Below, in pieces: positions 1 to 17,929 of a stretch of 17,929 nucleotides of DNA. This DNA is from Desulfobacterales bacterium HSG16. GTDB lineage: Bacteria > Desulfobacterota > Desulfobacteria > Desulfobacterales > HSG16. How positions within the stretch are numbered: the first letter of the stretch is position 1; the number at the start of each line of letters is the position of its first letter. Made by a program: the position numbers and the translations under genes. Location of the stretch: positions 1 through 17,929 of the forward strand of contig JAUCGE010000078.1 in the NCBI GenBank assembly GCA_030377965.1. The letters run 5' to 3'. The notes beneath the pieces are model-generated. The model had not been told where the DNA came from. It made no database searches and saw only the letters and a program-made list of their open reading frames with translations.

Positions 1-263
1 CCACTTGAGCATTGACCAAAAAGAACAAATATTGGATTATGTTCAACAATTCATTAATGTAAAATCAGACGCTGACTGTGTTACCTGATTTTTTCGATTT
101 TGTACGGATTTTTATTGCAACGGCACAGGTACTTATTTGGTATCTTCTTTAAATTTTATAGTATTCAAGGCGATGTAGATGGTTGAAAAAATCAGAAAAA
201 TATGCCAAAAGAATAGAGGCAACGATTACACATTCAATAATCAAATAAACACAGAAGGTAACC

Positions 264-3857: not shown

Positions 3858-4252
3858 CAGCCCTTGTTTGTGACAACCTAAAACTGATCCACTTTGATAA
3901 CCCAAAATTGACCCACCCTCCTGGATGTGTTTTGACAAGGTCATACATGGTCTTATATTTATCAAGGGCTTCATGATTGAGACAATAACATGTACACATA
4001 CCTTCAACCGTTCCGAGTATGATGCCCCGGCCTTCTTCAAACTTTTCAAGTGCTGGCTCACAGTGGACCCGAAAATCCCAATAATCCCAGTTCAGACAAA
4101 TGGTAGTTGTCTTGAACTGAGATTTGGGGGATTATGGGGATTAAGAGGAAAAGGACATATTTCGAAATTGGTAATCAGCATTTTTCCCGGCTTTTCATTT
4201 ATGAAAAAGAACAAATCAATAGTAAATATTTTTAAAAAGGACAATAAAATCA

Positions 4253-4942
4253 ATGCTATATATAAACAACAGGCTTCTTGTCTTAGATAGAATTCTTAAA
4301 ATTTATGACGGGTTTATGGCCCAACAGGACATTGCCTGCTCAAAGGGATGCGCTGCATGTTGTACCCGCAATGTCACCACAACCACATTGGAAGGGTATC
4401 GACTCATGGAATACATGATATCTATGGGCAGCAATGAGGAATTGATGGCAAAAATAGAGAATGAATCGGATCGACCGCGTTTTGTTCCCACACTTACCAC
4501 AAACCGGCTGGCCGAGCTTTGTATGCAGGGAGAACAGGTTCCCGAAGAAAAAAATGATGCAGCCTGGGGCGAATGCCCTATGCTGAAAGATAACCAGTGT
4601 CCAGTCTATTCAGCAAGGCCGTTTGGATGCAGATGTATGGTATCCGTATCGGATTGTCGTGGGCAGAGCGCGGCTTCCATGCCTGACTTTCTGCTGACAG
4701 TAAACGAAGTTTTCTTACAATATATTGAGCATATTGATCCGTCTGGTAAATCTGGAAACCTGACAGATATACTCATTTATATGTCAAACCCGGACAAGCG
4801 GAACCAGTATCTTGCCGGTAATATTGAGGATGGCAGCAGTGAAAATACGCTTATTTCAAATCACCCTGTGAAAATGCTGATGATACCGCCCGAACACAGG
4901 GAGAGGATAGCGCCTTTGATTGAAAGCCTCAACAGGATTTAA
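4253..4942 (+). CDS. YkgJ/UPF0153-family cysteine-cluster protein (putative Fe-S or Zn-binding CxxCxxCC domain)
   Basis: 229-aa ORF with AAAGGA upstream. It carries the signature CSKGCAACC plus a downstream CPVY...RPFGCRCM cysteine set typical of the YkgJ-type zinc/iron-chelating domain. An alternative start at ATG 4316 (MAQQD) is possible but lacks an RBS. Confidence 0.7.
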   Translation: MLYINNRLLVLDRILKIYDGFMAQQDIACSKGCAACCTRNVTTTTLEGYRLMEYMISMGSNEELMAKIENESDRPRFVPTLTTNRLAELCMQGEQVPEEKNDAAWGECPMLKDNQCPVYSARPFGCRCMVSVSDCRGQSAASMPDFLLTVNEVFLQYIEHIDPSGKSGNLTDILIYMSNPDKRNQYLAGNIEDGSSENTLISNHPVKMLMIPPEHRERIAPLIESLNRI

Positions 4943-5786
4943 TCGGTATTTTAAGCACCTTTGCTGCATTTGTTCCGCAGATGAGCTCGATATCGCTTTT
5001 TGCAATACCTGATTTTTCAAGTTCCTTGAAATATCTCGGTGATTTCAGCAGAGGATAATCTGTGCCAAAAAGTATTTTTTCACGGCAACCGGGTAGTCTC
5101 ATAGCATGTTTAAAAATGTCCGGTTGATAGAGAAAAGGGGAGGCAGCCGTGTCATACCATACATTTTTCAACACATCCCCGGCTTCTTTTTTCAAAAGAA
5201 GGAAGAAGAAAATCCCTCCGCCCCAATGAGCGAAAATAATGCGGTTATCCGGGTATCGTTTAGCTGTTTTATATATCTGACTCAATGTGTTAGGCGATTT
5301 TCCAGGGTACATATGGCCTACAGGCTCGTTTGTGTGAATAAGAACCGGAACGTCTTTTTTTCGGCATATGTCCATGACCGGTTCGAGCCTGTCTCGTGCC
5401 TCCTGGTCTATTCCCGACTGATAAATTGCAAGTTCACCAATGCCTGAAAGTCCATGATCCAGGCAGCGGGCAGCTTCCTCGCCTGCTTTTTCATGGCAGG
5501 GATCAAAACAGCCAAAGCCGATCAGCCGATCTGGATATCTGGACACAGCTTCCATTATAAAATCGTTTTCCCTTATATATATTGCAGGATCTGTCCAGGG
5601 AAAACCGAAAATTACGGATTTGTCGATTCCATCTTCGTCCATCTGTCTTACAAGCTCGTCTGCTCCCACAATCTTTGACCTGGGAGAATCGTACAGGAGC
5701 TTGAATGCTGGTTCGCCGGGAAAAAAAGACTCTCTTTCTGCTCTGATTCTTTTCGAGAACAGGTGAGTGTGAAAATCAATTATCAT
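4929..5786 (-). CDS. Amidohydrolase-2 family metal-dependent TIM-barrel hydrolase
   Basis: 285-aa ORF beginning MIIDFHTHLF, the classic HxH metal-binding start of PF04909-type amidohydrolases. Later His and Asp residues (VLIHTNEP, IFAHWGG, FGTDYP) match the TIM-barrel hydrolase pattern. Its 3' end overlaps the convergent upstream gene by 14 bp. Confidence 0.8.
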   Translation of the reverse strand: MIIDFHTHLFSKRIRAERESFFPGEPAFKLLYDSPRSKIVGADELVRQMDEDGIDKSVIFGFPWTDPAIYIRENDFIMEAVSRYPDRLIGFGCFDPCHEKAGEEAARCLDHGLSGIGELAIYQSGIDQEARDRLEPVMDICRKKDVPVLIHTNEPVGHMYPGKSPNTLSQIYKTAKRYPDNRIIFAHWGGGIFFFLLLKKEAGDVLKNVWYDTAASPFLYQPDIFKHAMRLPGCREKILFGTDYPLLKSPRYFKELEKSGIAKSDIELICGTNAAKVLKIPIKSC

Positions 5787-5923
5787 CAGTCAATCCTCCA
5801 TATAAACAATCTCATCTTGGACATTGAATGCAAAATGTGGTATTGATACCCCAAAATTTATTTTAAGTCTATAGTACAACGGCATTTGTTTTTCAACATT
5901 TAATAACACAGGAGATTTCGAGT

Positions 5924-6472
5924 ATGAATTTTGAGCAGGCAGGACGTGAAAACACAGAAAAATGCCTGGAACTGGCATTTAAGCGGAGTCAGGAACTGGG
6001 AATTGATGAAATTGTGCTGGCTTCCACAACCGGCAGAACGGCATATAAAGCACTTGAAATCTTTTCAGATTTAAAAATCGTTTCAGTAACATATCATGGA
6101 GGATTCAAAGAGCCTTTTAAAAACGCCATGTCAGATGAAACCAGAAACGACCTTGAATCAAAAGGAGTTCGGATAGTATCGGCTACACACGCCCTGTCCG
6201 GCGTGGAACGTTCCATTGCAAGAAAATACACAGGCAGTTATCCTGTATTATTGATTGCTGATACCCTGAGATTGTTCGGACAGGGAACCAAGGTGGCCGT
6301 AGAAATTTCGATCATGGCAGCAGACAGCGGAAAATTGAGCGGAAAAGACATCATTGCCATAGGCGGCACAGGACGCGGTTCAGATTCAGCGCTTGTATTA
6401 AAACCTGCCAATCAGTCGGATCTGTTTGACATGAAAATTCGAGAAATCATCTGTAAACCCAGCAATTTTTAA
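5924..6472 (+). CDS. Stand-alone pyruvate kinase C-terminal (alpha/beta) domain-like protein
   Basis: 182-aa ORF with RBS AGGAG (5910-5914) 9 nt upstream. The sequence GIDEIVLASTTGRTAYKAL...VRIVSATHALSG...GKDIIAIGGTGRGSDSALVLKP resembles the effector-binding C-terminal domain of pyruvate kinase without the catalytic barrel. Assignment is by memory of the domain pattern only. Confidence 0.55.
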   Translation: MNFEQAGRENTEKCLELAFKRSQELGIDEIVLASTTGRTAYKALEIFSDLKIVSVTYHGGFKEPFKNAMSDETRNDLESKGVRIVSATHALSGVERSIARKYTGSYPVLLIADTLRLFGQGTKVAVEISIMAADSGKLSGKDIIAIGGTGRGSDSALVLKPANQSDLFDMKIREIICKPSNF

Positions 6473-6497
6473 ATGGAAAAAAATCGGTTTAAAAAAT

Positions 6498-6992
6498 ATG
6501 AAACAGAAAATTCCGCATTACGAACGGCATGTGGTGCTTATGGCTCCGGAAGTTCACTGGAATACGGGCAACATAGGCAGAACCTGTATTGGTACGGGGG
6601 CATTTCTTCATCTGGTCAGGCCATTGGGGTTTTCTATAGACAGCCGTGAAGTTAAGAGAGCTGGACTCGATTACTGGCCAAAGGTCAAATTGTCGGTGTG
6701 GGAGGATTTTTCTGTTTTTTTAAACGGCATGAAACCTGAAGCGGAAGAAGTGGCCCTTTTTTCCAAAAATGGCGCAAAATCTTTCTGGGAAATGCCCCGA
6801 TCCTCGCGGCTCTTTTTGATTTTCGGTTCTGAAACCAGAGGATTACCGGAAAACCTTTTATCCATGTACCCGGACAAGATATTTCATATTCCGATTTCAG
6901 ATGACATAAGGTGTCTGAATTTGTCCACATCGGTAGGTATTGCTCTGTATGAAAGCCTGAGAATCGCTGATTTCTCACACTCATGGAAATGA
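6498..6992 (+). CDS. trmL: tRNA (cytidine/uridine-2'-O-)-methyltransferase TrmL (SpoU/TrmH family)
   Basis: 164-aa ORF. The motifs HVVLMAPEVHWNTGNIGRTC, GLDYW, LIFGSETRGLPENLL, IPISDDIRCLNLSTSVGIALYE match the TrmL/SPOUT pattern (E. coli TrmL: PPNTGNIIRLC...RAGLDY...FGPETRGLP...RSMNLSNAV). Confidence 0.85.
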   Translation: MKQKIPHYERHVVLMAPEVHWNTGNIGRTCIGTGAFLHLVRPLGFSIDSREVKRAGLDYWPKVKLSVWEDFSVFLNGMKPEAEEVALFSKNGAKSFWEMPRSSRLFLIFGSETRGLPENLLSMYPDKIFHIPISDDIRCLNLSTSVGIALYESLRIADFSHSWK

Positions 6993-7091
6993 AAGCTTGA
7001 ATTTTTTTTCCAAACTCGTTATATATGCTTTCATAACAATTTCGATTTCAATATTGATCAACCTTTACACAAAAATTGAAAGGAGGTTCAA

Positions 7092-7712
7092 TTGCTCGAA
7101 TACCTTCGTTTTGCTATCACTCCTCTAAATCTTCCATTCACTATTTTCTTAGGTGTCGTCATGCTTTACTGGCTGGCTGTCATAATTGGCGCTGCTGATA
7201 TGGATATGTTCCACGCTGATATGGACATGGATATGGATATAGACGGTGTGGAAGGTGTCGGTCATTCCCTGTTTCATTTCCTGAACATCGGTGATGTACC
7301 GGTTATGGTCATCATAAGCGTAATGGCTTTTGGCGGCTGGGCTTTTTCCATGATCACAAATTTCTATTTCAACCGGCCCGGAGACATATTGCTCGGACTT
7401 GGTCTGCTCGTCCCAAATCTGATAGTCACCCTTCTTGTTGGATCAGTCATATTGAGACCGGTGGCAAAACTGTTCAAATCCCTCAATTATGAAGACAAGG
7501 AAGCCCAGAAAATAGTATATCGTGTGGGCAGAGTCGTTTCCGGGGAGGTCAACAATGAGTTCGGCCAGGTGGAAATGGAAACTGAGGGAGCCATCATTAC
7601 CATAAATGCCCGAATTCCCGACGGCTTGCCTCTTAAAAAAGGGGAAAGAGTCCTTGTTTTTGACGAAGACAAGGAAAAGAACGTCTATTTTGTCGAAAAA
7701 TTTACCGAATAG
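7092..7712 (+). CDS. NfeD-like / YqiJ-type membrane protein (flotillin partner) with acidic Met-Asp repeat loop and C-terminal OB-fold
   Basis: TTG start 4 nt after AAAGGAGGT (7078-7086). ATG 7161 is an alternative start. It has three hydrophobic helices: LPFTIFLGVVMLYWLAVIIGAA, VPVMVIISVMAFGGWAFSMI and ILLGLGLLVPNLIVTLLVGSVIL. The C-terminal beta-rich segment GRVVSGEV...GQVEMETEGAIITINARIPDGLPLKKGERVLVFDE is typical of the NfeD OB-fold. The stop (TAG 7710-7712) is embedded in the RBS of the following flotillin gene, so the two are translationally coupled. Confidence 0.7.
   Translation: MLEYLRFAITPLNLPFTIFLGVVMLYWLAVIIGAADMDMFHADMDMDMDIDGVEGVGHSLFHFLNIGDVPVMVIISVMAFGGWAFSMITNFYFNRPGDILLGLGLLVPNLIVTLLVGSVILRPVAKLFKSLNYEDKEAQKIVYRVGRVVSGEVNNEFGQVEMETEGAIITINARIPDGLPLKKGERVLVFDEDKEKNVYFVEKFTE
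7197..7244 (+). repeat. In-frame hexanucleotide (GATATG/GACATG) microsatellite encoding (Asp-Met)n: ADMDMFHADMDMDMDID
   Basis: Read directly: gatatggatatg ttccacgct gatatggacatggatatggatatagac. Confidence 0.8.
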
Positions 7713-7723
7713 GAGGATGTAAA

Positions 7724-9901
7724 ATGCAGGATATCATTGTTTTCATCACTGGCATAGGCGGATTTTTGATCGTTGGCATAGGATGCGGGCTTCTAATCAT
7801 GCTCATCAAATGCTACCGAAAAGTGGAACAGGGCCAGGCTCTTATCAGAAACGGAATGGGAGGAACCAAAGTGACCTTTTCCGGTATGGTCGTGATTCCC
7901 ATTCTTCACAGGTCTGAAATGATTGAAATCTCACTCAAACGGGTGATAATTGACCGGCATGGATCTGAAGGGCTGATATGCCAGGATAACATGCGGGCAG
8001 ACATAAAAGTGGTATTCTTTGTTCGGGTGAACAAGACAGAACCGGATGTTCTCAAGGTAGCCCAGACAGTCGGATGCGACAGAGCTTCCCATCAGAAGAC
8101 CATCCAGGAGCTGTTTGATGCCAAGTTCTCAGAAGCTCTCAAGACCGTGGGAAAACAATTCGATTTCGTGGATCTTTATAATTCACGGGAAAAATTCAAG
8201 GACGAAATATTGAATATCATCGGCACGGACTTGAACGGATTTGTCTTAGATGATGCCGCAATTGATTATCTGGAGCAGACCAACCTGGATATGCTCAATG
8301 AATTCAATATTCTCGACTCCGAAGGCATAAGAAAGATCACCGAACTGACTTCCAAACAAAAGATTCAGTCCAACCAGCTGGCCAGAGGACGTGAGAAAAC
8401 CATAACACAGCAGGATGTAGAGGCAAAAGAAGCGATTCTTGTGCTTAACAAGCAGCTTGCGGAAGCTGAAAATCAGCAGCGCAGAGAGATCGAATCCATA
8501 AAGGCCAGAGAAGACGCTGAAATAGAAAAAGTTCAGCACGAAGAACACCTCAAATCTGAAAATGCAAGAATCAGCATGGAAGAAGAGGTTAATGTTGCAG
8601 AGGAAAATAAACAGCGCCAGATCATTGTAGCTCAGAAAAACAAGGAAAAAACCGAGGCTGTCGAAACCGAGAGAATCGAAAAGGATCGTATGCTCGAAGC
8701 AAACGAGCGCGAGCGTCTTGTATCCCTGGCTCAGATCGAAAAAGACAAAGCCATTGAGATAGAACGCAAAGCGATCCAGGATGTTATAAGAGAGAGAGTG
8801 GCGGTAGAAAAAACCGTTGTGATCGAACAGGAAAAGATCAAAGATACCGAGGCATTTGCCGGAGCTGACAGAGAAAAGAAAGTCGTGATGACTCATGCTG
8901 AAAAAGAAGCTGAGGAAAAACTGATCAAAGACATCAAGGGCGCTGAAGCTGAGAAAAAAGTCGCAGCGCTTCAGGCTGACAAGGAACTCTACAAGGTTGT
9001 AAAATCTGCCGAAGCGAATCGGCAGGCAGCAGATCTCAAGGCCGAAGAAGTGGTTATTGAGGCTGAAGCCTATCAGAGTGCTGCAGAAAAGAAATCTGCT
9101 GCCAAGAAAATGCTGGCAGAAGCCGAAATCGAAGAAAAGGCGGCTCCCGGACTTGCGGAAGTAAAAGTTGCCCAGTCCCAGGCAGATGCCATAGAAAAAC
9201 GTGGTGCAGCAGAAGCCAAGGTGATCGATAACAAGGGTACTGCAGAAGCCAAGGTGCTGGAACTCAAAAACCAGGTGACAGCAAGAAGCATTGATAACAA
9301 AGGCACGGCAGAAGCAAAAGTACAAGCTCTCAAATTTCAGTCGGAAGCAAAAGGTATTGAAAACAAGGCCAATGCAATGAAACTGCTTGACGCGGTGGGC
9401 CGTGAACATGAGGAATTCAAGCTTCGACTTAATAAGGAAAAAGATATCGAACTTGCTGCCATAAATGTTCAGAAAGAAGTTGCAGAAAACCAGGCAGTCA
9501 TTATCGGAGAAGCTTTGAAATCTGCCAAGGTGGATATCATCGGAGGGGAAACCACATTTTTCGACAGGATTGTCAATGCTGTATCTGCCGGAAAGGCCGT
9601 AGATCGATTGGTGACAAGTTCCAAGACAATAAGCGATGTCAAGGAGACCTTTTTCAATGCTGATCCGAATTTTTTCCGGAGCCAGATAAAAGATTTCTTT
9701 ACCCAGTTCGGACTCAGTTCCGAAGATTTTAAGAATTTGAGCATTTCAGCAGCCCTGACTCAGCTTCTGTCCATAGTCGAAAAACCTGAAGATCGATCAC
9801 AGGTTTACGATCTTATGGCCCTGGCTGAAAAATCAGGCTTGAAAGATCGGATGTTGTCTATTGTCGATACAAAACCTGTCAAGAAGAAGAAACAGGGTTG
9901 A
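7724..9901 (+). CDS. Flotillin-like SPFH/band-7 protein (YqiK/FloT-like) with extended Ala/Glu/Lys-rich coiled coil
   Basis: RBS AGGAGG (7711-7716) 7 nt from the ATG. An N-terminal membrane helix (IIVFITGIGGFLIVGIGCGLLIMLI) is followed by an SPFH core: QALIRNGMGGTKVTFSGMVVIPILHRSEMIEISLKR...CQDNMRADIKVVFFVRV. Then comes a very long EA-repeat coiled coil, giving 725 aa against about 550 aa for E. coli YqiK. Confidence 0.85.
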   Translation: MQDIIVFITGIGGFLIVGIGCGLLIMLIKCYRKVEQGQALIRNGMGGTKVTFSGMVVIPILHRSEMIEISLKRVIIDRHGSEGLICQDNMRADIKVVFFVRVNKTEPDVLKVAQTVGCDRASHQKTIQELFDAKFSEALKTVGKQFDFVDLYNSREKFKDEILNIIGTDLNGFVLDDAAIDYLEQTNLDMLNEFNILDSEGIRKITELTSKQKIQSNQLARGREKTITQQDVEAKEAILVLNKQLAEAENQQRREIESIKAREDAEIEKVQHEEHLKSENARISMEEEVNVAEENKQRQIIVAQKNKEKTEAVETERIEKDRMLEANERERLVSLAQIEKDKAIEIERKAIQDVIRERVAVEKTVVIEQEKIKDTEAFAGADREKKVVMTHAEKEAEEKLIKDIKGAEAEKKVAALQADKELYKVVKSAEANRQAADLKAEEVVIEAEAYQSAAEKKSAAKKMLAEAEIEEKAAPGLAEVKVAQSQADAIEKRGAAEAKVIDNKGTAEAKVLELKNQVTARSIDNKGTAEAKVQALKFQSEAKGIENKANAMKLLDAVGREHEEFKLRLNKEKDIELAAINVQKEVAENQAVIIGEALKSAKVDIIGGETTFFDRIVNAVSAGKAVDRLVTSSKTISDVKETFFNADPNFFRSQIKDFFTQFGLSSEDFKNLSISAALTQLLSIVEKPEDRSQVYDLMALAEKSGLKDRMLSIVDTKPVKKKKQG
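9209..9322 (+). repeat. Tandem 22-aa (66-nt) repeats inside the flotillin coiled coil (IDNKGTAEAKV...), including exact 15-nt copies gcagaagccaaggtg at 9209-9223 and 9242-9256
   Basis: Direct inspection: atcgataacaagggtactgcagaagccaaggtg (9224-9256) against attgataacaaaggcacggcagaagcaaaagta (9290-9322). Confidence 0.8.
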
Positions 9902-9916
9902 ACGTAAAAACCTGAA

Positions 9917-9959
9917 AAACCGGATGTCATTCGATTTATAGATATCCGGTTTTACTTTT
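9917..9959 (+). terminator. Hairpin (aaaccggat / atccggttt, 18-nt loop) plus T-rich tail, 16 nt after the flotillin stop
   Basis: Stem 9917-9925 pairs with 9944-9952, followed by tactttt. The loop is long for an intrinsic terminator. Confidence 0.35.
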
Positions 9960-10011
9960 CTGCCAGTGCCAGGTAACTCAGGGATTTCCCAATTAATAAA
10001 ATACCTGGTAG

Positions 10012-10040
10012 GGCGGGGTTCCGTCCCCGCCATCTTTCTT
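10012..10040 (+). terminator. GC-rich stem-loop (ggcgggg ttccgt ccccgcc) followed by atctttctt, a rho-independent terminator-like element
   Basis: Perfect 7-bp GC stem 10012-10018 / 10025-10031, 6-nt loop, T-rich tail 10032-10040. It sits between the flotillin gene and the giant gene. Confidence 0.45.
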
Positions 10041-10160
10041 GGCAGAGAACAACGCCCGGCGATCAGGCAACTGGTGGGCAACGCTTCGCTTTTGCCCACC
10101 CTGCTAAAAAATGTCACGAAATTTTTGCACAGGTACATATGCCAGCAATCAGGCAAAAAT

Positions 10161-10180
10161 TCGATTAAATTTTGAATCGA
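10161..10180 (+). promoter_or_regulatory. Perfect palindrome tcgatt-N8-aatcga 17 nt upstream of the giant gene RBS, a candidate operator or leader hairpin
   Basis: tcgattaaattttgaatcga, read directly. RBS AAGGAG at 10197-10202, 8 nt before ATG 10211. Confidence 0.3.
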
Positions 10181-10210
10181 TCAAATTTCAGATAAAAAGG
10201 AGTAATACCA

Positions 10211-13200
10211 ATGCCCCCCGAAGATGAACAAAAACTGGGAACCGAAGGCGAAGTGGTATTGGAGGGCGGAACCTATGAGATCATCAGAAACCGCCTGTCA
10301 AGCCACGGCCAGGATCTGCAATCAAGGCTCGGACAGCTCAATGAAAGCCGAAAAGAAATTTTCGGCTCCATAGAAGCCACCATTCTGACAACAGAACGCG
10401 TAAGTACAAAAAACAACTGTGTTCCCAGAGATCTTGTTCCGGTCGGGGGAAACAGGTTCGTTTTCGGGTTTAATGTTCATCTGGGGCTGAAATCCGAGAT
10501 GAATTTATCCGATGTATTCGCTATTTATGAATATAAAGATCGAGCTTTTCGCGAACAGCCCCTCGATATGTTGAAGGCAGGCAGATTCGAAGAGGATTTT
10601 TTAAACCTGTACAAGTATTACAAGGGAACCCGATTTGCAAAATTTTCCATTATCGGTCCCAATCTTTTCATGATATTCAGAGTAGGCAAAACCCCAAAAG
10701 ACATAAAAACATTCAAGTGGGCCGTAAGTGACGAAGGTATAACCTATATCGATAACCGAAGCGATCACGAATTCAAATATCCTCCCCAGCACGACTTTAC
10801 ATGGACACGTACCAACAGAGACCTTCACCGTACCGGGCTTCACCCCCACATCTCTATCGAAGAAAAAGTCTTTGTAGAAGCTGTAGGAGGCGACATAACC
10901 TTCAAAGTGGAAGATAACACAGACAGCGGCCAGGGCATATATGCGGAAGTCGTGGAAAATCTGGACCAGACTCTTGATGACGCTGATATCCGTTATGCCA
11001 TCTTAGGCCACATCATACTTGTCAGGATCAAGCCCTATATGGAGAGTGATTTTCGATATTTTATATTCAATGAAAAAGACCAGACGGTTCATCGTGTGGA
11101 TGGGATAGAAAATTCCTGCGTTTTCCTGCCGGATGACCAGGGGCTTATCTTTTCAAAAGGATATTACCTTCAGACCGGCGAACTCAAGCAGTTCGACTCC
11201 GAAACCGAGGATATGATATTTGAAAACCGCATTGCAGCAGCAAACGGTGAAGACTACCTTTATACCTTTTACAATCAGGAAACCGGCGAGCATGTACTTC
11301 TTCCTTATAATATAATCGACCAGAAAGTGGAAAACCCCATTTCCTGTCATGGTTTTTCCAACTTCGATACAGGCGAAATGCTTATTTTTCGGGGTGATCC
11401 CGATCCTGCAAAACATCATGCCATCCAGATATGGCAGACTCCTTATGTAAGCGGGGAACATGCCTTTACAGAGGAAAACGACTCCCTGCTTTATAAAATC
11501 GGAAACCCCGACATCGTAAGATGCATGGCCGAATGCAATGAATTGTTAAAGTTGATCTACAAGGAATCCCTGTATGGAGGCATTTACATAGATATGGTCA
11601 AGAAAGCCACGACCATAGCAGATACATGGTTCTGGCTGGACAAGGAAGAAGCCTTCAACTTAAAAAACACAATAGTAGAAGTCAGGGATGCGGCAAACTC
11701 GGCTATTGACGAGTTTGAAAAGGTAGTAAGACTTAAAAAGAGTACAGCCGACGAAGTTGTAAGAGTATCTGACAGGGCTGTAGATATCCTGAAACGAGCA
11801 GCTCCCGACAGGATGGAAAGCATCGACCATTTTGTCGCTGGCCTGGCAGAACTCCGGAGCGTCAGGGGTGAAATCATATCCTTGAAGGAACTGCGCTATG
11901 TGGATATTGCCGCAGTGGAAAATCTGGAAGGCAGAATTATAACATCCACTGAAGAGATGTCTGCCATATGCGTCGAGTTTTTACTCAAACCAGAATCGCT
12001 GATACCCTATGAAAATCGCGTGACAGGTATTGAGGGAAAAGTCGTGGAACTGGCAAAAGTGACAGAAGCCAAAGCGCTTGAAAAAGAAGTTGCTGATGCA
12101 GGAAACGAACTTGAAATGCTCATAGAGATCGTGAGCAATCTCAAGATAGAAGATGCTACACATACCACAAAAATCATAGAAAATATTTCAGAAATTTATT
12201 CTTCTGTAAACCGTATCAAGGCAGCCATAAAAAATAAGGTAAAAAGCCTGCAATCCACAGAAGGCGCTGCCCAGTTCAATGCCCAGTTGAAACTTTTGAA
12301 TCAGAGCGTCATAAATTATCTTGATATCTGTGACACCCCTCAAAAATGCGACGAATACATGACAAAAGTCATGATATCAGTGGAAGAACTCGAAAGCAGA
12401 TTTTCAGATTTTGACGAGTTTATCCTCGAACTGTCTGGTAAAAGAGATGAGGTTTACAACGCATTTGAATCAAAAAAACTGAATCTTGTGGAAGCTCGGA
12501 ACAAGAAGGCCAATACACTGATGAGTGCTGCGGAAAGAATCTTGAAAGGGATTCAGAACCGCGCTAAGGGAATGGATGACGTTGACGCTATCAACGGATA
12601 TTTTGCCTCGGATATGATGATCGAAAAAATCCGGGATATAATAGCCCAGTTGATCGAACTGGACGATTCGGTAAAAGCCGATGATATCCAGTCCAGGCTC
12701 AAAACCGTTCGTGAAGATGCTGTCCGCCAGTTAAAAGACCGGCAGGAACTTTTTGTTGATGGGGCAAATGTAATCAAATTCGGAGAACACAATTTTTCTG
12801 TCAATGTACAGGCTCTGGATCTGACCATCGTCATGAAAGATGGTCAGATGATGTTTCATCTTACCGGAACAGATTTTTTTGAAACTATTGATGATAAAGA
12901 GTTTCTATCTACCCGTCCTGTCTGGAACATGGATGTACCCTCGGAAAACAGAGATGTTTACAGGGGAGAATTTTTAGCTTACAAAATGCTTGAACAGATC
13001 GAAGCAGGGGACGAAACTCTTGATCATTTGAAAGCTTCTGCAATAGCAGGAGAGGACGAAGAAAATCCAAATCTGTGGACCGAGGCAGTGCAGAAATTTA
13101 TGGGGCCTCGATACACAGAAGGCTATGCCAAGGGCGTGCATGATCATGATGCTGCAAAAATTTTAAGCGTTCTGGCAAAAATGCATTTTTCCATCGGCCT

Positions 13201-15931
13201 GTTGCGTTTTCACCCAAAGGCCAGGGCATTGGGCCGACTTTTCTGGTTTTTGTACGAGAATGATAAAAACCGAAAAAGTCTTGTTGCAAAACTCAAAAGC
13301 TTTGGCTTGATGCAGGAACTTTTCCCGGACAAAAAAAAGCAGGACAATTATATCTGCCAGTTACAGAGTTCGGTAAAGGATTTTATCCGTAAAAGCAAAT
13401 TATTTCCTGAAGAATTATTCGAAGTTACCGGTCAATACCTTTTTCACGAATTGAGCAGGCGTGAAATCGTGCCGGGCGAGCATTTTGTGATATCCAAAGA
13501 AGCCTGGGAGCTTGTTCGTGAGTTCAACCGCTATTTAAAGACTCACAGGTTCATGGATAAATTCAAGGGAGCAAGAAAAGAGCTTGAAAATGATTCCATA
13601 GCAGAATTTGAGCTGGTCTTGAACTGGATGCAGGCATATGTGGATACTCTGGACAATGAAGAACTCGCCGATTATTCCGATGAGGCAGCAGTCCTCGTGT
13701 TCGCCCGGAGTCAGGAAGCAGAAGCCGAGCAGAAAAGAAATGTGGTGGATGTTGCAGTCACAGCCGAAATCGAGAAAATGGCAGGCGACCATAGAGTTTT
13801 AAAGTCCGGTAATTACTATCTCAATTATAACCGGTTCATGGAAAAACTGGGCAAATATGAACGTGAAATAATCCCCATGTTCGAAAAAAGTGCAAGTCTC
13901 AAAAAAGAATTGACGGACAATATGCGCGAAGATATGCGTCTGGATGAATTCAAACCCAGAATACTTAGCTCTTTTGTCAGAAACAAACTGATAAACACGC
14001 TCTACCTGCCCCTTGTTGGTGATAACCTGGCAAAACAGATCGGAGTTGTAGGAGAAGCAAAGAGAACCGATCTTATGGGACTTCTGCTTTTGATATCTCC
14101 TCCCGGATACGGAAAAACCACTTTGATGGAATATCTGGCCAACCGTCTGGGTATTATCTTCATGAAGATAAATGGCCCTGCCATCGGCCATAGGGTGACA
14201 TCCCTTGATCCTGCCGAAGCACCCAATGCAAGTGCAAAAGAAGAGGTGCAAAAACTTAATCTGGCATTGGAAATGGGCGACAATGTCATGCTCTATCTTG
14301 ATGATATCCAGCACTGCAACCCGGAACTTTTGCAGAAATTTATATCCCTTTGCGATGCTCAGAGAAAAATAGAAGGCATATATAAGGGCAAGAGCCGCAC
14401 CTACGATCTGAGAGGTAAAAAAGTAGTTGTTGTCATGGCCGGAAACCCATTTACGGAAAGCGGCGAAAAATTCCAGATTCCCGATATGCTCTCCAACCGT
14501 GCGGACACTTACAATTTAGGCGATATAATAGGAGACAGCGCAGACGCTTTTAAAATGAGCTATCTTGAAAATGCCCTGACCTCCAACGCAGTGCTGAACA
14601 AGCTTTCCAGCAGAAGCCAGAAGGATATTTACAGCATCATCCGGATAGCGGAAACCGGCAACAGGGAAGGAATCGAGTTCACCGGCAATTATTCAGGTGA
14701 AGAAATCAACGAGATGGTCTCGGTCATGAAGAAGATGATCGTAATCCGGGACGTAATTTTGAAGGTAAACACCGAATATATTTATTCGGCGGCCCAGTCC
14801 GACGAATACCGTACAGAACCCGCCTTCAAACTTCAAGGTTCCTATAGAAACATGAATCGTATCACCGAAAAAATAGTTCCCATAATGAACGATGATGAAC
14901 TTGTCACCATGATTCTGGCCCATTACGAAAACGAGTCTCAGACATTGACTACCAGCGCTGAAGCAAACCTTCTGAAATTCAAGAAACTTACCGGCTGGAT
15001 AAGTAATGAAGAAGCCGAGCGCTGGAAAGAGATCAAGAAAAAATTCAACCAGAAACAACTGTTTCACGGTGCGGATGCAAGCGACCCGGCTTCCCGTGTA
15101 GTAGCTCAATTGATGGGTTTTCAAGACGGCCTGGAATCGATAAAAGAGGTGCTTGCTTCCGGCATGAAAAAAGCAGGCAAGGCTGATCCTGCAGAAAATA
15201 TCGTCACCCAGCTAGTGGGTTTTCAAGACGGCCTGGAATCAATAAAAGAGGTTCTGTCTCTTGGCATGGAACAAATGACATCAAAAGAAAAAAGAGCTGA
15301 TAAGACAGGAAAACAACCTCTGGATACTCATGTCAGCTTCAGCCCGGAAACCATGAAAAAGCTCGAAAAATTATTGAGCGGAATGAAGCCGGTTTCTGTA
15401 GTTGCAGCGCCTATGGGCCAAGCGGTCCCTTCTGTACCGTTACAGACCCAGAGGAGCGATATATCGGTAGCAAAAAACGCAGCACAGATGGCCCGTGGCG
15501 GATTTCCCGAATCAGCGCCAATGGTTCCGGACACTGCCCGCGAGATCCACAAAATGCCCAAAAATCTTTTTTATCGGTCAATAAAAACCGGCGATGCAGG
15601 TGCAATTACAAAATTGCTCGAACAAGGACAGGACCCCAATGTTTCCACCACAGAAGGAGCTACTCCACTGATGGCGGCTGCTTTTCACAACCATTTTAAA
15701 ATAATAGATATTCTGCTTCAAAAAGGTGCGAAAATAAATACACGGGACAAAGATGGTTATACAGCTTTGATGATAGCCTCCTGCAAGGGATATGAAAAGG
15801 CTGTCAAAATGCTTTTGAAGCATGGGGCAGATCCAAAATTACAAGACAAAGACGGCATGACCGCCTTGGACTGGGCGCAGAAAAGCGATCTTCAGGGAAT
15901 AAAAGAGTTGTGGAATGATGGGACAGAATAA
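10211..15931 (+). CDS. Giant (1906 aa) multidomain protein: uncharacterized N-terminal region, long coiled-coil scaffold, single AAA_5-like P-loop ATPase module, 34-aa tandem repeats, C-terminal ankyrin repeats
   Basis: 5.7-kb uninterrupted ORF with RBS AAGGAG. Walker A is LLISPPGYGKTTLMEY (nt about 14096-14122). Walker B is DNVMLYLDDIQH (nt 14288-14310). The sensor-1-like motif is KKVVVVMAGNPFTE. The ankyrin block is TPLMAAAFHNHFKIIDILLQKGAKINTRDKDGYTALMIASCKGYEKAVKMLLKHGADPKLQDKDGMTALDWA. No TM helices or signal peptide are apparent. Confidence 0.85.
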   Translation: MPPEDEQKLGTEGEVVLEGGTYEIIRNRLSSHGQDLQSRLGQLNESRKEIFGSIEATILTTERVSTKNNCVPRDLVPVGGNRFVFGFNVHLGLKSEMNLSDVFAIYEYKDRAFREQPLDMLKAGRFEEDFLNLYKYYKGTRFAKFSIIGPNLFMIFRVGKTPKDIKTFKWAVSDEGITYIDNRSDHEFKYPPQHDFTWTRTNRDLHRTGLHPHISIEEKVFVEAVGGDITFKVEDNTDSGQGIYAEVVENLDQTLDDADIRYAILGHIILVRIKPYMESDFRYFIFNEKDQTVHRVDGIENSCVFLPDDQGLIFSKGYYLQTGELKQFDSETEDMIFENRIAAANGEDYLYTFYNQETGEHVLLPYNIIDQKVENPISCHGFSNFDTGEMLIFRGDPDPAKHHAIQIWQTPYVSGEHAFTEENDSLLYKIGNPDIVRCMAECNELLKLIYKESLYGGIYIDMVKKATTIADTWFWLDKEEAFNLKNTIVEVRDAANSAIDEFEKVVRLKKSTADEVVRVSDRAVDILKRAAPDRMESIDHFVAGLAELRSVRGEIISLKELRYVDIAAVENLEGRIITSTEEMSAICVEFLLKPESLIPYENRVTGIEGKVVELAKVTEAKALEKEVADAGNELEMLIEIVSNLKIEDATHTTKIIENISEIYSSVNRIKAAIKNKVKSLQSTEGAAQFNAQLKLLNQSVINYLDICDTPQKCDEYMTKVMISVEELESRFSDFDEFILELSGKRDEVYNAFESKKLNLVEARNKKANTLMSAAERILKGIQNRAKGMDDVDAINGYFASDMMIEKIRDIIAQLIELDDSVKADDIQSRLKTVREDAVRQLKDRQELFVDGANVIKFGEHNFSVNVQALDLTIVMKDGQMMFHLTGTDFFETIDDKEFLSTRPVWNMDVPSENRDVYRGEFLAYKMLEQIEAGDETLDHLKASAIAGEDEENPNLWTEAVQKFMGPRYTEGYAKGVHDHDAAKILSVLAKMHFSIGLLRFHPKARALGRLFWFLYENDKNRKSLVAKLKSFGLMQELFPDKKKQDNYICQLQSSVKDFIRKSKLFPEELFEVTGQYLFHELSRREIVPGEHFVISKEAWELVREFNRYLKTHRFMDKFKGARKELENDSIAEFELVLNWMQAYVDTLDNEELADYSDEAAVLVFARSQEAEAEQKRNVVDVAVTAEIEKMAGDHRVLKSGNYYLNYNRFMEKLGKYEREIIPMFEKSASLKKELTDNMREDMRLDEFKPRILSSFVRNKLINTLYLPLVGDNLAKQIGVVGEAKRTDLMGLLLLISPPGYGKTTLMEYLANRLGIIFMKINGPAIGHRVTSLDPAEAPNASAKEEVQKLNLALEMGDNVMLYLDDIQHCNPELLQKFISLCDAQRKIEGIYKGKSRTYDLRGKKVVVVMAGNPFTESGEKFQIPDMLSNRADTYNLGDIIGDSADAFKMSYLENALTSNAVLNKLSSRSQKDIYSIIRIAETGNREGIEFTGNYSGEEINEMVSVMKKMIVIRDVILKVNTEYIYSAAQSDEYRTEPAFKLQGSYRNMNRITEKIVPIMNDDELVTMILAHYENESQTLTTSAEANLLKFKKLTGWISNEEAERWKEIKKKFNQKQLFHGADASDPASRVVAQLMGFQDGLESIKEVLASGMKKAGKADPAENIVTQLVGFQDGLESIKEVLSLGMEQMTSKEKRADKTGKQPLDTHVSFSPETMKKLEKLLSGMKPVSVVAAPMGQAVPSVPLQTQRSDISVAKNAAQMARGGFPESAPMVPDTAREIHKMPKNLFYRSIKTGDAGAITKLLEQGQDPNVSTTEGATPLMAAAFHNHFKIIDILLQKGAKINTRDKDGYTALMIASCKGYEKAVKMLLKHGADPKLQDKDGMTALDWAQKSDLQGIKELWNDGTE
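13990..14620 (+). other. AAA+ (dynein-related AAA_5 / MoxR-McrB-like) ATPase module within the giant protein
   Basis: P-loop GYGKTT (Gly at 14105-14107, Lys 14114-14116). The Walker B reads hhhhDD (Asp-Asp at 14300-14305), without the usual DE. Spacing and the IEG...VVVVMAGNP segment resemble AAA_5 layouts (for example MoxR DEINRA...ATQNP). Confidence 0.6.
15101..15268 (+). repeat. Two tandem 34-aa (102-nt) repeats QL(M/V)GFQDGLESIKEVL(A/S)xGM, with 35/36-nt identical cores at 15115-15150 and 15217-15252
   Basis: Direct comparison: gggttttcaagacggcctggaatcGataaaagaggt against gggttttcaagacggcctggaatcAataaaagaggt. The flanking codons are divergent. Confidence 0.85.
15578..15910 (+). other. 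C-terminal ankyrin-repeat block (3 full repeats plus a capping repeat) of the giant protein
   Basis: TPLH-like and hairpin consensus: GATPLMAAA...IIDILLQKGAKIN, DGYTALMIAS...AVKMLLKHGADPK, DGMTALDWAQ. Confidence 0.7.
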
Positions 15932-15962
15932 GACCTGTTTCAGATAAAACCTGAATCTATAT

Positions 15963-15988
15963 AGCCACCGCATGTATCTGCGGTGGCT
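15963..15988. terminator. 9-bp stem hairpin (agccaccgc atgtatct gcggtggct) between convergent genes, a candidate bidirectional terminator
   Basis: It lies 32 nt after the giant gene stop and 30 nt after the stop of the minus-strand gene 16018-16293. The minus orientation is followed by a moderately T-rich tract. Confidence 0.4.
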
Positions 15989-16017
15989 CTCAATTTATGA
16001 AAAAAACCTTTTATTCC

Positions 16018-16293
16018 CTAAAATTGCAGAAGAGCTACTGGCAGCAGAACTGATACAGCAATCCAGAAAATCGTTTTTACCATGCCTGCATAATCGGGAG
16101 AAATCGGCAGATTGTACAATTCCTTATGCACTCCGGCGTTTTCTCCTGTCGTATCTTCAGGTGAAACCATGTATAAAGCAAGCCCTTTGACATGTCCCCA
16201 CTTTTCCTTTGATTCTTCATTTTTTATAGACACATCTGCACTTGCATTTTTCGGCATAAAAACTGTTTCTGAATAATAACAATTGCTGTTCAT
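16018..16293 (-). CDS. Small (91 aa) hypothetical protein with C-terminal hydrophobic anchor (TIFWIAVSVLLPVALLQF)
   Basis: Strong RBS AGGAGGA (plus coordinates 16301-16307, reverse strand) 7 nt upstream of the ATG. There is a single C-terminal TM-like segment. I recognise no family. Confidence 0.55.
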   Translation of the reverse strand: MNSNCYYSETVFMPKNASADVSIKNEESKEKWGHVKGLALYMVSPEDTTGENAGVHKELYNLPISPDYAGMVKTIFWIAVSVLLPVALLQF

Positions 16294-16367
16294 GGTGTTC
16301 TCCTCCTGATAAATTATTAAACATAAAGTTTGCCATATCTATCGGCATCAATTCTTCGATCATCTTT

Positions 16368-16394
16368 TTGACATATGATAATCAATCTGATAAT
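16368..16394 (+). promoter_or_regulatory. Sigma70-like promoter candidate for the MocR-type regulator gene: TTGACA (16368-16373), 15-nt spacer, GATAAT (16389-16394)
   Basis: Consensus -35 hexamer and a 5/6 match at -10. ACAGAT direct repeats and an ATCTG...CAGAT inverted repeat follow immediately (16386-16438). Confidence 0.35.
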
Positions 16395-16435
16395 TAATAA
16401 CAGATACAGATTATGAAAAATTAAACCATAACAGA

Positions 16436-17911
16436 TTGGAGGCGCTATTGTTGAGAGCAGTTAAAGAAAAGCCTGATTTTCAGTATCTCAGGCTAGCAAA
16501 TGAAATAGAGGGTAAAATTATAGGGGGTGAATACAGAGCTGGTGACAAACTGCCTTCCTTGAGAAAACTGCACAAGCAGATCAGCCAGAGTATTTCCACC
16601 GTATATCAGGCATATATCGAACTTGAAAACAGGGGCATTGTGGAGTCACGTTTGAAATCTGGATTTTATGTAAAGCCACTCCTTCATGTCAAACTGTCGT
16701 CTCCAAAAAGTGTAACACCCTCTGCCATACCGAAAAAAGTCAGTATCTGTACTATTGCAAATTCGATCATTGAAGCCATGAGTGATCCTGGGATTCTTCA
16801 ACTTGGAGGTGCTGCGCCGAGTTCTGACCTCCTGCCTTCCAAGCAGTTATCGAGAATCATCAAGTCAGCGTCTCAGGAGGAAATGAAACATATCATGCTT
16901 GATTACGAAATCCCTGCCGGGAACATGGAGCTCAGACGTGAGATAGCGAAAAAAACTTTTGGACTTTTTGAGAAAATAACGACCAATGAAATCATTACGA
17001 CAAATGGGTGTATGGACGCTGTCAGCCTCTGCCTCAAGTCTGTGGCAAAACCGGGGGATACCATTGCTGTGGAATCTCCGACTTTTCATGGTTTTTTGCA
17101 GTTGATAGAAGGGTTTGACATGTATGCACTTGAGATACAGACCGATATCGTAAAAGGCATTGATACAAAAAAACTGATGAAAGCCATAGACCAGCATGAT
17201 GTCAAGGCATGTATTTTAAACACTACCTTCAACAATCCCACAGGATTTTCAATGTCTGACAGGAGAAAACGCGAACTTGTCACATCGTTGAACAAAAAGA
17301 ATATCCCCATAATTGAAGACGATATTTATGGGGATTTATATTTTGGGGAAAAACGCCCTTCCACCCTGAAATCTTTTGATAAAAAAGGACTTGTCTTATA
17401 TTGCTCATCATTTTCCAAAGCCCTTGCTCCCGGCTTGAGGGTCGGTTGGACGATACCAGGAAAATTCAAGGAAACAGTCATGCGAAACAAAATGATCGCA
17501 TCTCTGGCTTCCTCTCGTCTGAATCAGGTGATAATCGCCCGTTTTTTAAAAAGCGGCTCATATGACAGACATTTGAGAAAGATCAGGAACCAGTTGAAAA
17601 ACCAGGTGAGCAATACATCTCTTGCCATTGCACGCCATTTCCCGGAAAATACCAAAATTACCTCACCTGCCGGCGGGCTTTTACTATGGTGTCAACTTGA
17701 TCCGGCTATTGATGCTATGGAATTATACTATGAAGCTAAGAAACGTAACATCTCCATTCTGCCGGGTGCTATCTGTTCAGGGACAAAAAAGAACCATAAT
17801 TGTATCAGGATCAGTTGCGGATATCCCTGGAGCAAGGATCTGGAAAATGGAATCATTACACTGGGCCGTTTGATTTCGGATCTTGTCGATAAAAAAAATG
17901 GGGCGAATTGA
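16436..17911 (+). CDS. MocR/GabR-type transcriptional regulator (GntR-family HTH fused to PLP-dependent aminotransferase-fold domain)
   Basis: The N-terminal GntR HTH pattern is FQYLRLANEIEGKIIGGEYRAGDKLPSLRKL...STVYQAYIELENRGIVESRLKSGFYV. The C-terminal roughly 350 aa show aminotransferase class I/II fold features (IITTNGCMDAVSL, SFSKALAPGLRVGW, with the lysine of SFSK as the likely PLP site). The annotated TTG at 16436 overlaps a GGAGG (16438-16442). The real start is more likely TTG 16448 or 16451. Confidence 0.85.
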   Translation: MEALLLRAVKEKPDFQYLRLANEIEGKIIGGEYRAGDKLPSLRKLHKQISQSISTVYQAYIELENRGIVESRLKSGFYVKPLLHVKLSSPKSVTPSAIPKKVSICTIANSIIEAMSDPGILQLGGAAPSSDLLPSKQLSRIIKSASQEEMKHIMLDYEIPAGNMELRREIAKKTFGLFEKITTNEIITTNGCMDAVSLCLKSVAKPGDTIAVESPTFHGFLQLIEGFDMYALEIQTDIVKGIDTKKLMKAIDQHDVKACILNTTFNNPTGFSMSDRRKRELVTSLNKKNIPIIEDDIYGDLYFGEKRPSTLKSFDKKGLVLYCSSFSKALAPGLRVGWTIPGKFKETVMRNKMIASLASSRLNQVIIARFLKSGSYDRHLRKIRNQLKNQVSNTSLAIARHFPENTKITSPAGGLLLWCQLDPAIDAMELYYEAKKRNISILPGAICSGTKKNHNCIRISCGYPWSKDLENGIITLGRLISDLVDKKNGAN

Positions 17912-17929
17912 ATGTAAACGCTAAATGCC

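Follow-up and report, generated by a model that had tools for sequence, protein, structure and literature searches.

The window analyzed here is a 17,929-nt stretch of DNA from Desulfobacterales bacterium HSG16 (contig JAUCGE010000078.1, positions 1 to 17,929), which contains three consecutive genes encoding a short NfeD-like inner-membrane protein of the YqiJ/YuaF type (7092-7712, 206 amino acids), a long flotillin (7724-9901, 725 amino acids) and a giant soluble ATPase of the DUF3686/DUF7902/AAA+ family (10211-15931, 1906 amino acids). All three genes lie on the plus strand, to which the coordinates given below refer unless stated otherwise. An earlier reading based on the DNA letters alone (the sequence-only reading) had described these genes as a co-directional NfeD/YqiJ-like, long flotillin and AAA+/ankyrin set, and calling of open reading frames (ORFs), domain searches and homology bear this out at the same positions. 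Together, they represent a new member of an operon family which is known but mechanistically unsolved, the ankyrin tail of the ATPase being the distinguishing feature of the window.

The first gene has a TTG start with an AGGAGG ribosome-binding site ahead of it, and its product contains three hydrophobic segments. This protein matches Pfam YqiJ_N with a score just below the cut-off of 23 (22.7 bits, E 1.2e-4), and it has no match to Pfam YqiJ_OB or NfeD. A profile of 16 family members aligned over 155 columns with Escherichia coli YqiJ, itself composed of YqiJ_N and YqiJ_OB according to Pfam, the alignment covering the membrane part and the OB region (hhalign 96%, E 3e-9). It reaches YqiJ residue 193, with low per-column confidence within the OB region (139-198). 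The orthologous protein of Pseudomonas aeruginosa, BacC (PA3730 / PA14_16160), is 25% identical over its full length (E 3e-14). On the basis of these comparisons, the first gene product is assigned as a YqiJ/YuaF-type short NfeD-like membrane protein with a predicted C-terminal OB-like domain.

The flotillin gene starts 11 nt past the stop codon of the first gene, which is overlapped by a GGAGG sequence. Its product is composed of an anchor corresponding to a single N-terminal hydrophobic segment (residues 1-32), an SPFH/Band-7 region, glutamate- and alanine-rich (EA-rich) helices and a C-terminal part. No Pfam hidden Markov model (HMM), including Band_7 and Flot, matched this protein even at E <= 10, NCBIfam returned no match for it or for the first gene product, and searching the PDB by sequence, whether with the flotillin alone or with a family profile, gave just a weak coiled-coil match to QmcA. 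Homology with E. coli YqiK is clear: BLASTP aligned both proteins from residue 1 with 28% identity over 450 amino acids (E 9e-38), a region which spans the Pfam Band_7 domain of YqiK (39-192). By profile comparison (hhalign 99.9%), the alignment stops at YqiK residue 476, that is, inside and not through the Flot domain (406-530). The window flotillin is longer than YqiK (725 vs 553 amino acids), with long helices predicted by AlphaFold2 (AF2) at residues 199-600 together with AEAKV repeats. This model, built from a 30-sequence alignment, has a predicted local distance difference test (pLDDT) score below 50 over residues 29-205; as its N-terminal part is poor, it was not used for a fold search and SPFH membership was set via the homology with YqiK instead. 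In P. aeruginosa, the orthologue is BacD, or PaFlo3 (PA3729 / PA14_16180; 45% identity, E 6e-169), which likewise lacks Pfam Band_7 and Flot matches (L085:5785-7851). The subfamily comprises more than 8000 relatives, whose members are named "flotillin" or "YqiK" by their sources, and none of the 120 relatives listed carries a precomputed Pfam domain. As the homology with YqiK is clear and Pfam gives no match, the window protein is a genuine flotillin of a subfamily missed by the Pfam models. Band_7 and Flot being blind to this subfamily, domain-based SPFH surveys will undercount such flotillins.

The third gene encodes the giant ATPase, in which Pfam identifies DUF3686 (residues 35-474, E 4e-179), DUF7902 (596-678, E 5e-26), an AAA domain (1292-1412) and ankyrin repeats (~1790-1890). 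No hydrophobic segment was found in this protein, in line with the sequence-only reading, which had described it as devoid of a membrane anchor. The AF2 model of residues 1-1200, obtained with a 51-sequence alignment, has a mean pLDDT of 81.8. It begins with a helix (residues 19-51) and a domain of ~28 strands (residues 57-409), which correspond to the DUF3686 core (10265-11437) and are modeled with pLDDT values mostly between 85 and 92. Foldseek matched this domain with PDB structures of WD40/Elp1, prolyl-oligopeptidase, PON1, CyRPA and DDB1 (probability 0.97-1.0), and the N-terminal domain is accordingly a beta-propeller. It is followed by a region of long helices that includes DUF7902 (11486-12751, residues 426-847; helices of 20-57 residues, pLDDT 55-87), and then by a small beta domain (residues 854-892) and an all-helical domain (residues 918-1176), both modeled with pLDDT values of 74-94 (12770-13738). 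No sequence relative of residues 854-1176 was found in the PDB. The "long coiled-coil stalk" of the sequence-only reading thus holds for ~420 residues of long helices; the part that follows is made of two distinct domains and the part ahead of it is a predicted propeller.

The single AAA+ module and its conserved C-terminal extension (13940-14980) were delimited from the Pfam AAA match and from invariant columns. The motifs comprise Walker A (GPPGYGKTT, K1302), a Walker-B-like sequence (DDIQH, D1364-D1365), sensor-1 (MAGN, N1412), PDMLSNRAD (R1430) and QGSYRNMN. Among ~300 homologues, Walker A is present in 302 of 306 and DDIQH in 294 of 303 sequences; the Walker A, Walker-B-like, sensor-1 and arginine motifs are all invariant or nearly so. 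The module had been read as dynein-related, which the domain scores do not favor: the AAA_5 match (E 4.3e-5) is weaker than those of AAA_22 and classical AAA (E 1.2e-6), and sequence matches in the PDB do not go beyond the Walker A/P-loop region of p97/Cdc48 and RuvB, the giant family itself having no solved structure.

Downstream of the AAA+ module, a tail motif conserved in the family (V.QL.GFQDGLESIKEVL) is tandemly duplicated with a 34-amino-acid period (15114-15274). The two copies, at 15114-15172 and 15216-15274, are 59 nt long with 85% identity and a spacing of 102 nt; the family consensus has this motif in single copy. About three ankyrin repeats terminate the protein (15548-15889; Pfam Ank_2, Ank and Ank_4). 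The tails of homologues, which are 320-620 amino acids long, carry ankyrin repeats, TPR or nothing: an ankyrin tail is present in eight of 387 giant homologues, all of them close relatives, and three other homologues end in TPR. The ankyrin repeats were added in this lineage specifically.

Ahead of the tail, the family is strikingly uniform. Walker A lies at a tightly conserved 1179-1337 amino acids from the N-terminus (median 1297), and the full-length DUF3686 members listed, of about 1600-1900 amino acids, have a single fixed architecture with this domain at the N-terminus. Giant homologues form more than 3000 protein clusters across phyla, with about 50-55% identity, and the DUF3686 domain itself accounts for 826 clusters at 50% identity among 1.84 billion representatives. 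The fixed length, the high conservation and the 826 clusters fit a structurally constrained machine and not a fast-evolving defence gene. One 1711-amino-acid homologue (P0037, 57% identity) belongs to a set of eukaryotic proteins (eukprot) and is probably a bacterial contamination or a recent transfer.

The association of the giant with the flotillin was examined by a gene-neighborhood survey. An alignment of 20 diverse giant homologues served as query against one genome per GTDB species, which gave at least 568 confirmed matches; 80 loci were sampled, of which 74 were informative (at least 300 bp upstream), and ORFs were called before iterated HMM searches with the three window proteins. A flotillin gene lies directly upstream of the giant gene, on the same strand, at 69 of the 74 informative loci. 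The three genes occur in the same order at 57 of these 69; the other 12 comprise seven loci in which the flotillin gene is cut by a contig end and five without YqiJ. The flotillin-giant spacer has a median of 128 bp and a minimum of -11 bp, the latter in two Clostridia loci whose flotillin and giant genes overlap. The loci represent at least seven phyla, namely Planctomycetota, Verrucomicrobiota, Bacteroidota, Clostridia, Kiritimatiellota, Omnitrophota and Desulfobacterota, and triads at 34-40% identity are found in annotated replicons of Pseudomonas (the plasmid pQBR103), Streptomyces and Deinococcus; the operon has spread both vertically and horizontally. With this synteny recurring across phyla, the possibility that giants never lie near flotillin/NfeD genes in other genomes is decisively contradicted. 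The reverse test led to the same picture, all three sampled members of the flotillin subfamily having a gene for a ~200-250-amino-acid protein upstream and a DUF3686 giant downstream; the triad is also present in Desulfonema ishimotonii, a Desulfobacterales relative. Pairwise identities among the three proteins also correlate (r = 0.56-0.76), consistent with co-inheritance, but this correlation is not discriminating because any genes of shared phylogeny would show it. These results strongly support that the three genes form one functional unit in which a soluble ATPase is tied to a flotillin/NfeD scaffold, a functional link that is as strong as synteny can make it.

Clustering of the remaining ORFs revealed that 18-21 Bacteroidota loci have the order CesT_Tir_1-PspA-YqiJ-flotillin-giant, together with a divergent helix-turn-helix (HTH) and S24 regulator. 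This regulator, a repressor with an S24 peptidase domain of the self-cleaving LexA/CI-like type, is exemplified by L013:3938-4735 on the minus strand and was found at 17 other Bacteroidota loci. A phage CII-like (Phage_CP76) gene adjoins the operon at L024:6170-6685 and at six other Verrucomicrobia/Kiritimatiellota loci. Such lineage-specific regulators suggest damage-inducible or phage-style control. Two further arrangements were noted. On pQBR103, a megaplasmid of Pseudomonas fluorescens SBW25 (L081 1-13172), the order is YjfI-PspA-rhomboid-DUF2491-DUF350-DUF1190-glutathionylspermidine synthase-like-YqiJ-like-SPFH-giant ATPase. At three Verrucomicrobiota loci (L046, L059 and L060), the flotillin ORF is longer (724-810 amino acids) and no separate YqiJ-like gene lies upstream, which could mean that the two genes are fused, that the partner has diverged or that the ORF was called too long.

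The sequence-only reading had presented this gene set as an undescribed system, a claim that the literature overturns. An operon of a YqiJ/YuaF protein with three transmembrane segments, a Band-7/flotillin protein and a "beta-propeller + coiled-coil + AAA-ATPase" has been described (Ravi, Anantharaman, Aravind et al., bioRxiv 2020; mSystems 2024; PMC11237479), often with CesT/Tir-PspA, and abbreviated operons without PspA are mentioned in the same work. The window has the same three families in the same order and on the same strand, with the propeller, helical region and AAA+ module all recovered here. Similarly, the Bacteroidota/Flavobacteriia loci of our survey reproduce exactly the Dokdonia neighborhood of Table S3 of Ravi et al., and the pQBR103 arrangement merges the two PspA operon types that these authors distinguished (flotillin/AAA+ and polyamine). 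In contrast to the full form, the window lacks CesT/Tir, PspA, PLD and the divergent HTH-S24 regulator; PspA and CesT profiles matched nowhere in the window, which is the abbreviated three-gene form without the CesT/Tir-PspA dyad. The ankyrin repeats and the duplicated tail motif of the window ATPase are not mentioned by Ravi et al.

The orthologous system of P. aeruginosa came from a search seeded with the pQBR103 protein. Its giant homologue (P0243, 1746 amino acids) belongs to a cluster of 3222 sequences and is encoded in the order DUF2170, PspA, 213-amino-acid protein, 688-amino-acid protein, giant, PLDc_2, YaeQ, RecJ and M4 peptidase. We take this locus to be PA3732-PA3727 in PAO1 gene numbering, followed by recJ and lasB. 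Its gene order matches that of the bacA-F operon, PA14_16140-PA14_16200 (PMC10948618). The window genes are orthologues of bacC, bacD and bacE; BacE (PA3728 / PA14_16190) shares about 34% identity and the same Pfam architecture with the window giant but, unlike it, has no ankyrin tail. The bacABCDEF operon also encodes BacA (DUF2170, CesT/Tir-like) and BacB (PspA) upstream and BacF (PLD) downstream and has a putative sigma-54 promoter, all of which are missing from the window. Co-transcription of bacA-F has been shown by reverse transcription PCR, with BacB-F increased 6- to 13-fold in a bacA mutant (PMC10948618); this adds to the synteny in favor of the functional link that had been proposed from gene order, and by analogy the window genes may be co-transcribed as well. 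Osmotic shock induces PA3731, which encodes the PspA homologue, and a pA3731 mutant has defects in biofilm, swarming, rhamnolipid production and virulence (PMC2587700). Expression of PA3728-PA3732 rises in every phage-infected P. aeruginosa sample (PMC12041424). By analogy with these orthologues, the window operon may likewise respond to stress or phage. BacD and PaFlo3 are one protein, whose partner counts among the short NfeD proteins (PMC13086221). A literature search on "DUF3686" returned nothing, and the giant ATPase itself was not characterized in the literature found.

More distant pairs share only part of this organization. In E. coli yqiJK and Bacillus yuaF-floT, as in the window, the gene for an NfeD-like membrane protein precedes a flotillin gene with which it is coupled in translation, and the window proteins are homologous to YqiJ and YqiK as described above. 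No giant ATPase gene lies downstream in E. coli, in which yqiK is followed by sibD/ibsD.

In the window, the flotillin and giant genes are separated by a structured non-coding spacer of 309 bp (9902-10210), which was delineated from the sequence, a terminator scan and RNA folding. In many relatives, the corresponding distance is near zero. The terminator-like hairpins that the sequence-only reading had placed in this spacer were recovered: a hairpin with a 13-bp stem (9916-9953), followed by ACTTTTCT, was detected by the terminator scan as terminator-like, and two GC-rich hairpins lie at 10012-10031 (GGCGGGG...CCCCGCC) and 10073-10100 (GGTGGGCAA...TTGCCCACC). The RNA fold z-score of the spacer is -5.5. 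The GC-rich hairpins look like repetitive extragenic palindromic (REP)-type intergenic elements; no further copies were found in the window, and Rfam matched no family in the whole window. In a close ankyrin-bearing relative (P0007), an 83-amino-acid DUF6812 gene (L089:8735-8986) sits between the flotillin and giant genes, and a similar small ORF was looked for in the window spacer but not found. As for promoters, 13 sigma-54 motifs were counted in the window, for 13.9 expected by chance, and none is placed as a promoter for either gene; the sole intergenic match (10067-10081) is on the minus strand. A sigma-70 scan did not exceed shuffled sequence.

The flanking genes of the window are unrelated to the triad. 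According to Pfam, a PAS hybrid histidine kinase, a CxxCxxCC protein, an amidohydrolase, a PK_C-like protein and a SpoU methylase are encoded upstream, and a GntR/aminotransferase regulator is encoded downstream of the giant gene. The histidine kinase is a 1197-amino-acid multi-PAS hybrid histidine kinase/response regulator (264-3857). A 121-amino-acid ORF with no family match (3925-4290) overlaps the start of the CxxCxxCC-domain gene (4253-4942) by 38 nt.

By its architecture, synteny and orthology, the triad is the core of a conserved BacC-BacD-BacE-type operon, and we consider it probable that this operon encodes an envelope-stress membrane-maintenance machine, with the ATPase remodeling flotillin or PspA assemblies. 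In such a mechanism, the flotillin, with the help of its short-NfeD partner, would oligomerize into an SPFH scaffold at the inner membrane, on its cytoplasmic side. The giant soluble protein would be recruited to this scaffold via its N-terminal beta-propeller and helical arm and would oligomerize through its single AAA+ module. Powered by ATP, it may then remodel, load or take apart the flotillin assembly or its partners, a PspA/ESCRT-III-like polymer being its likely substrate where the operon encodes one. The whole unit would act in an envelope-stress or membrane-maintenance response and, in the Desulfobacterales variant, the ankyrin repeats gained by the ATPase may provide an extra protein-docking module. 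Precedents exist for both kinds of coupling: HflK/C cages of SPFH proteins organize the AAA+ machine FtsH, and Vps4 remodels ESCRT-III/PspA-like polymers. The resemblance to HflK/C-FtsH and to Vps4-ESCRT-III/PspA, in which an SPFH scaffold or an ESCRT-III-like polymer is genetically coupled to an AAA+ ATPase at the membrane, is one of functional analogy alone: homology does not extend past the generic folds of SPFH and AAA+ proteins. Transmembrane segments, protease domains and MIT domains are all missing from the giant ATPase, whose one AAA module comes after ~1250 residues of propeller and helical domains.

Several observations weigh against this proposal. For every member of the family, physical interaction and ATPase activity are inferred. 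At the Walker B position (14300-14314), the giant has Asp-Asp (DDIQH) where the usual form is Asp-Glu, and ATP hydrolysis may consequently be slow or regulated. Five of the 74 informative loci have neither upstream gene, and pspA is absent within 10 kb from most non-Bacteroidota loci as well as from the window. In P. aeruginosa, deletion of paFlo3 decreased biofilm by just ~20% and caused no strong stress phenotype (PMC13086221). Finally, since a terminator-like hairpin stands between the flotillin and giant genes, their expression may be partly uncoupled in the window.

Other functions can be envisaged for the same set of genes. The flotillin/NfeD cage might sequester damaged or unassembled membrane proteins, with the giant acting on these clients as an unfoldase or extractase, by analogy with HflK/C-FtsH. 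The similarity of the Walker A region, closest to classical AAA unfoldases of the p97/Cdc48 type, would agree with such membrane-protein quality control, as would the propeller and the Ank/TPR tails, which are typical client- or adaptor-binding modules, and a citation within PMC13086221 credits Staphylococcus aureus FloA-NfeD with stabilizing unfolded proteins under stress. However, the neighborhood contains no conserved protease or degradation partner, and when further genes are present, it is PspA/CesT that recurs and not a protease. We regard this function as plausible but not likely. An anti-phage or abortive-infection role, in which the membrane scaffold senses envelope damage by the phage and the giant nucleoside triphosphatase is the effector or the sensor, is less likely still. 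The induction of PA3728-PA3732 by phage infection, the location of the operon on megaplasmids such as pQBR103, its patchy distribution, the PLD-family gene added in P. aeruginosa and the CII-like or S24-repressor gene that adjoins the operon in some Verrucomicrobia or in Bacteroidota, respectively, all point in this direction. Yet phage induction is classic Psp envelope-stress behavior too, the flanking genes are ordinary housekeeping genes and not defence islands, and the proteins, with the identity, cluster number and fixed architecture given above, are unusually conserved for defence genes. The significant matches in PADLOC-DB v2 (PDC-M72A, Ankyrin and MzaA) cover the ankyrin repeats alone, those to the AAA region (mad8 and TRIP13) are borderline (E about 0.01), and no homologue was found in 50,697 phage records; the phage-defence identity considered by the sequence-only reading finds little here to sustain it.

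The names under which the giant family appears in NCBI, UniRef and Pfam ("DNA repair ATPase", "ATPase involved in DNA repair") would imply a DNA-repair enzyme whose adjacency to flotillin/NfeD genes is functionally meaningless. This idea derives from inherited names alone, the Pfam description of DUF3686 among them, next to which can be set weak RuvB_N/RuvB matches around Walker A and the presence of recJ two genes downstream of the giant in P. aeruginosa. It is hardly credible: the RuvB similarity spans just ~50 P-loop residues, Pfam, NCBIfam and PDB searches revealed no DNA-binding, nuclease or helicase domain, the synteny with membrane-protein genes extends across phyla, with genes overlapping in some loci, and the bac operon is co-transcribed in P. 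aeruginosa. Given that neither domains nor context relate to DNA, the database name looks like a propagated misannotation.

A bolder form of the membrane-maintenance proposal can be advanced, tentatively and with more doubt than confidence. The giant could represent a new class of bacterial membrane-remodeling motor, in which an AAA+ hub would carry fixed-length arms of ~1300 residues tipped with propellers; these would attach to flotillin cages, as well as to PspA/ESCRT-III polymers where such polymers exist, and the motor would assemble or strip them in an ATP-dependent manner. The propeller-plus-helical-arm layout recalls that of a coat-like protein. Such a motor, if real, would be the first ATPase partner of prokaryotic flotillins and a functional counterpart of Vps4 or of the uncoating ATPases.

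To our knowledge, there is no consensus on the molecular function of bacterial flotillins, nor has a partner that consumes energy been described for them. The association of the flotillin with the giant is real and reciprocal, and in many phyla the operon links a single flotillin subfamily with an ATPase of very large size and unusual conservation (at least 568 species-genome matches). While the Desulfobacterales locus adds little beyond an ankyrin-tailed variant, P. aeruginosa bacCDE is a genetically tractable orthologous system, in which the action of the ATPase on flotillin or PspA is better addressed than at the window locus. The operon thus gives experiments direct access to the role of flotillin scaffolds.

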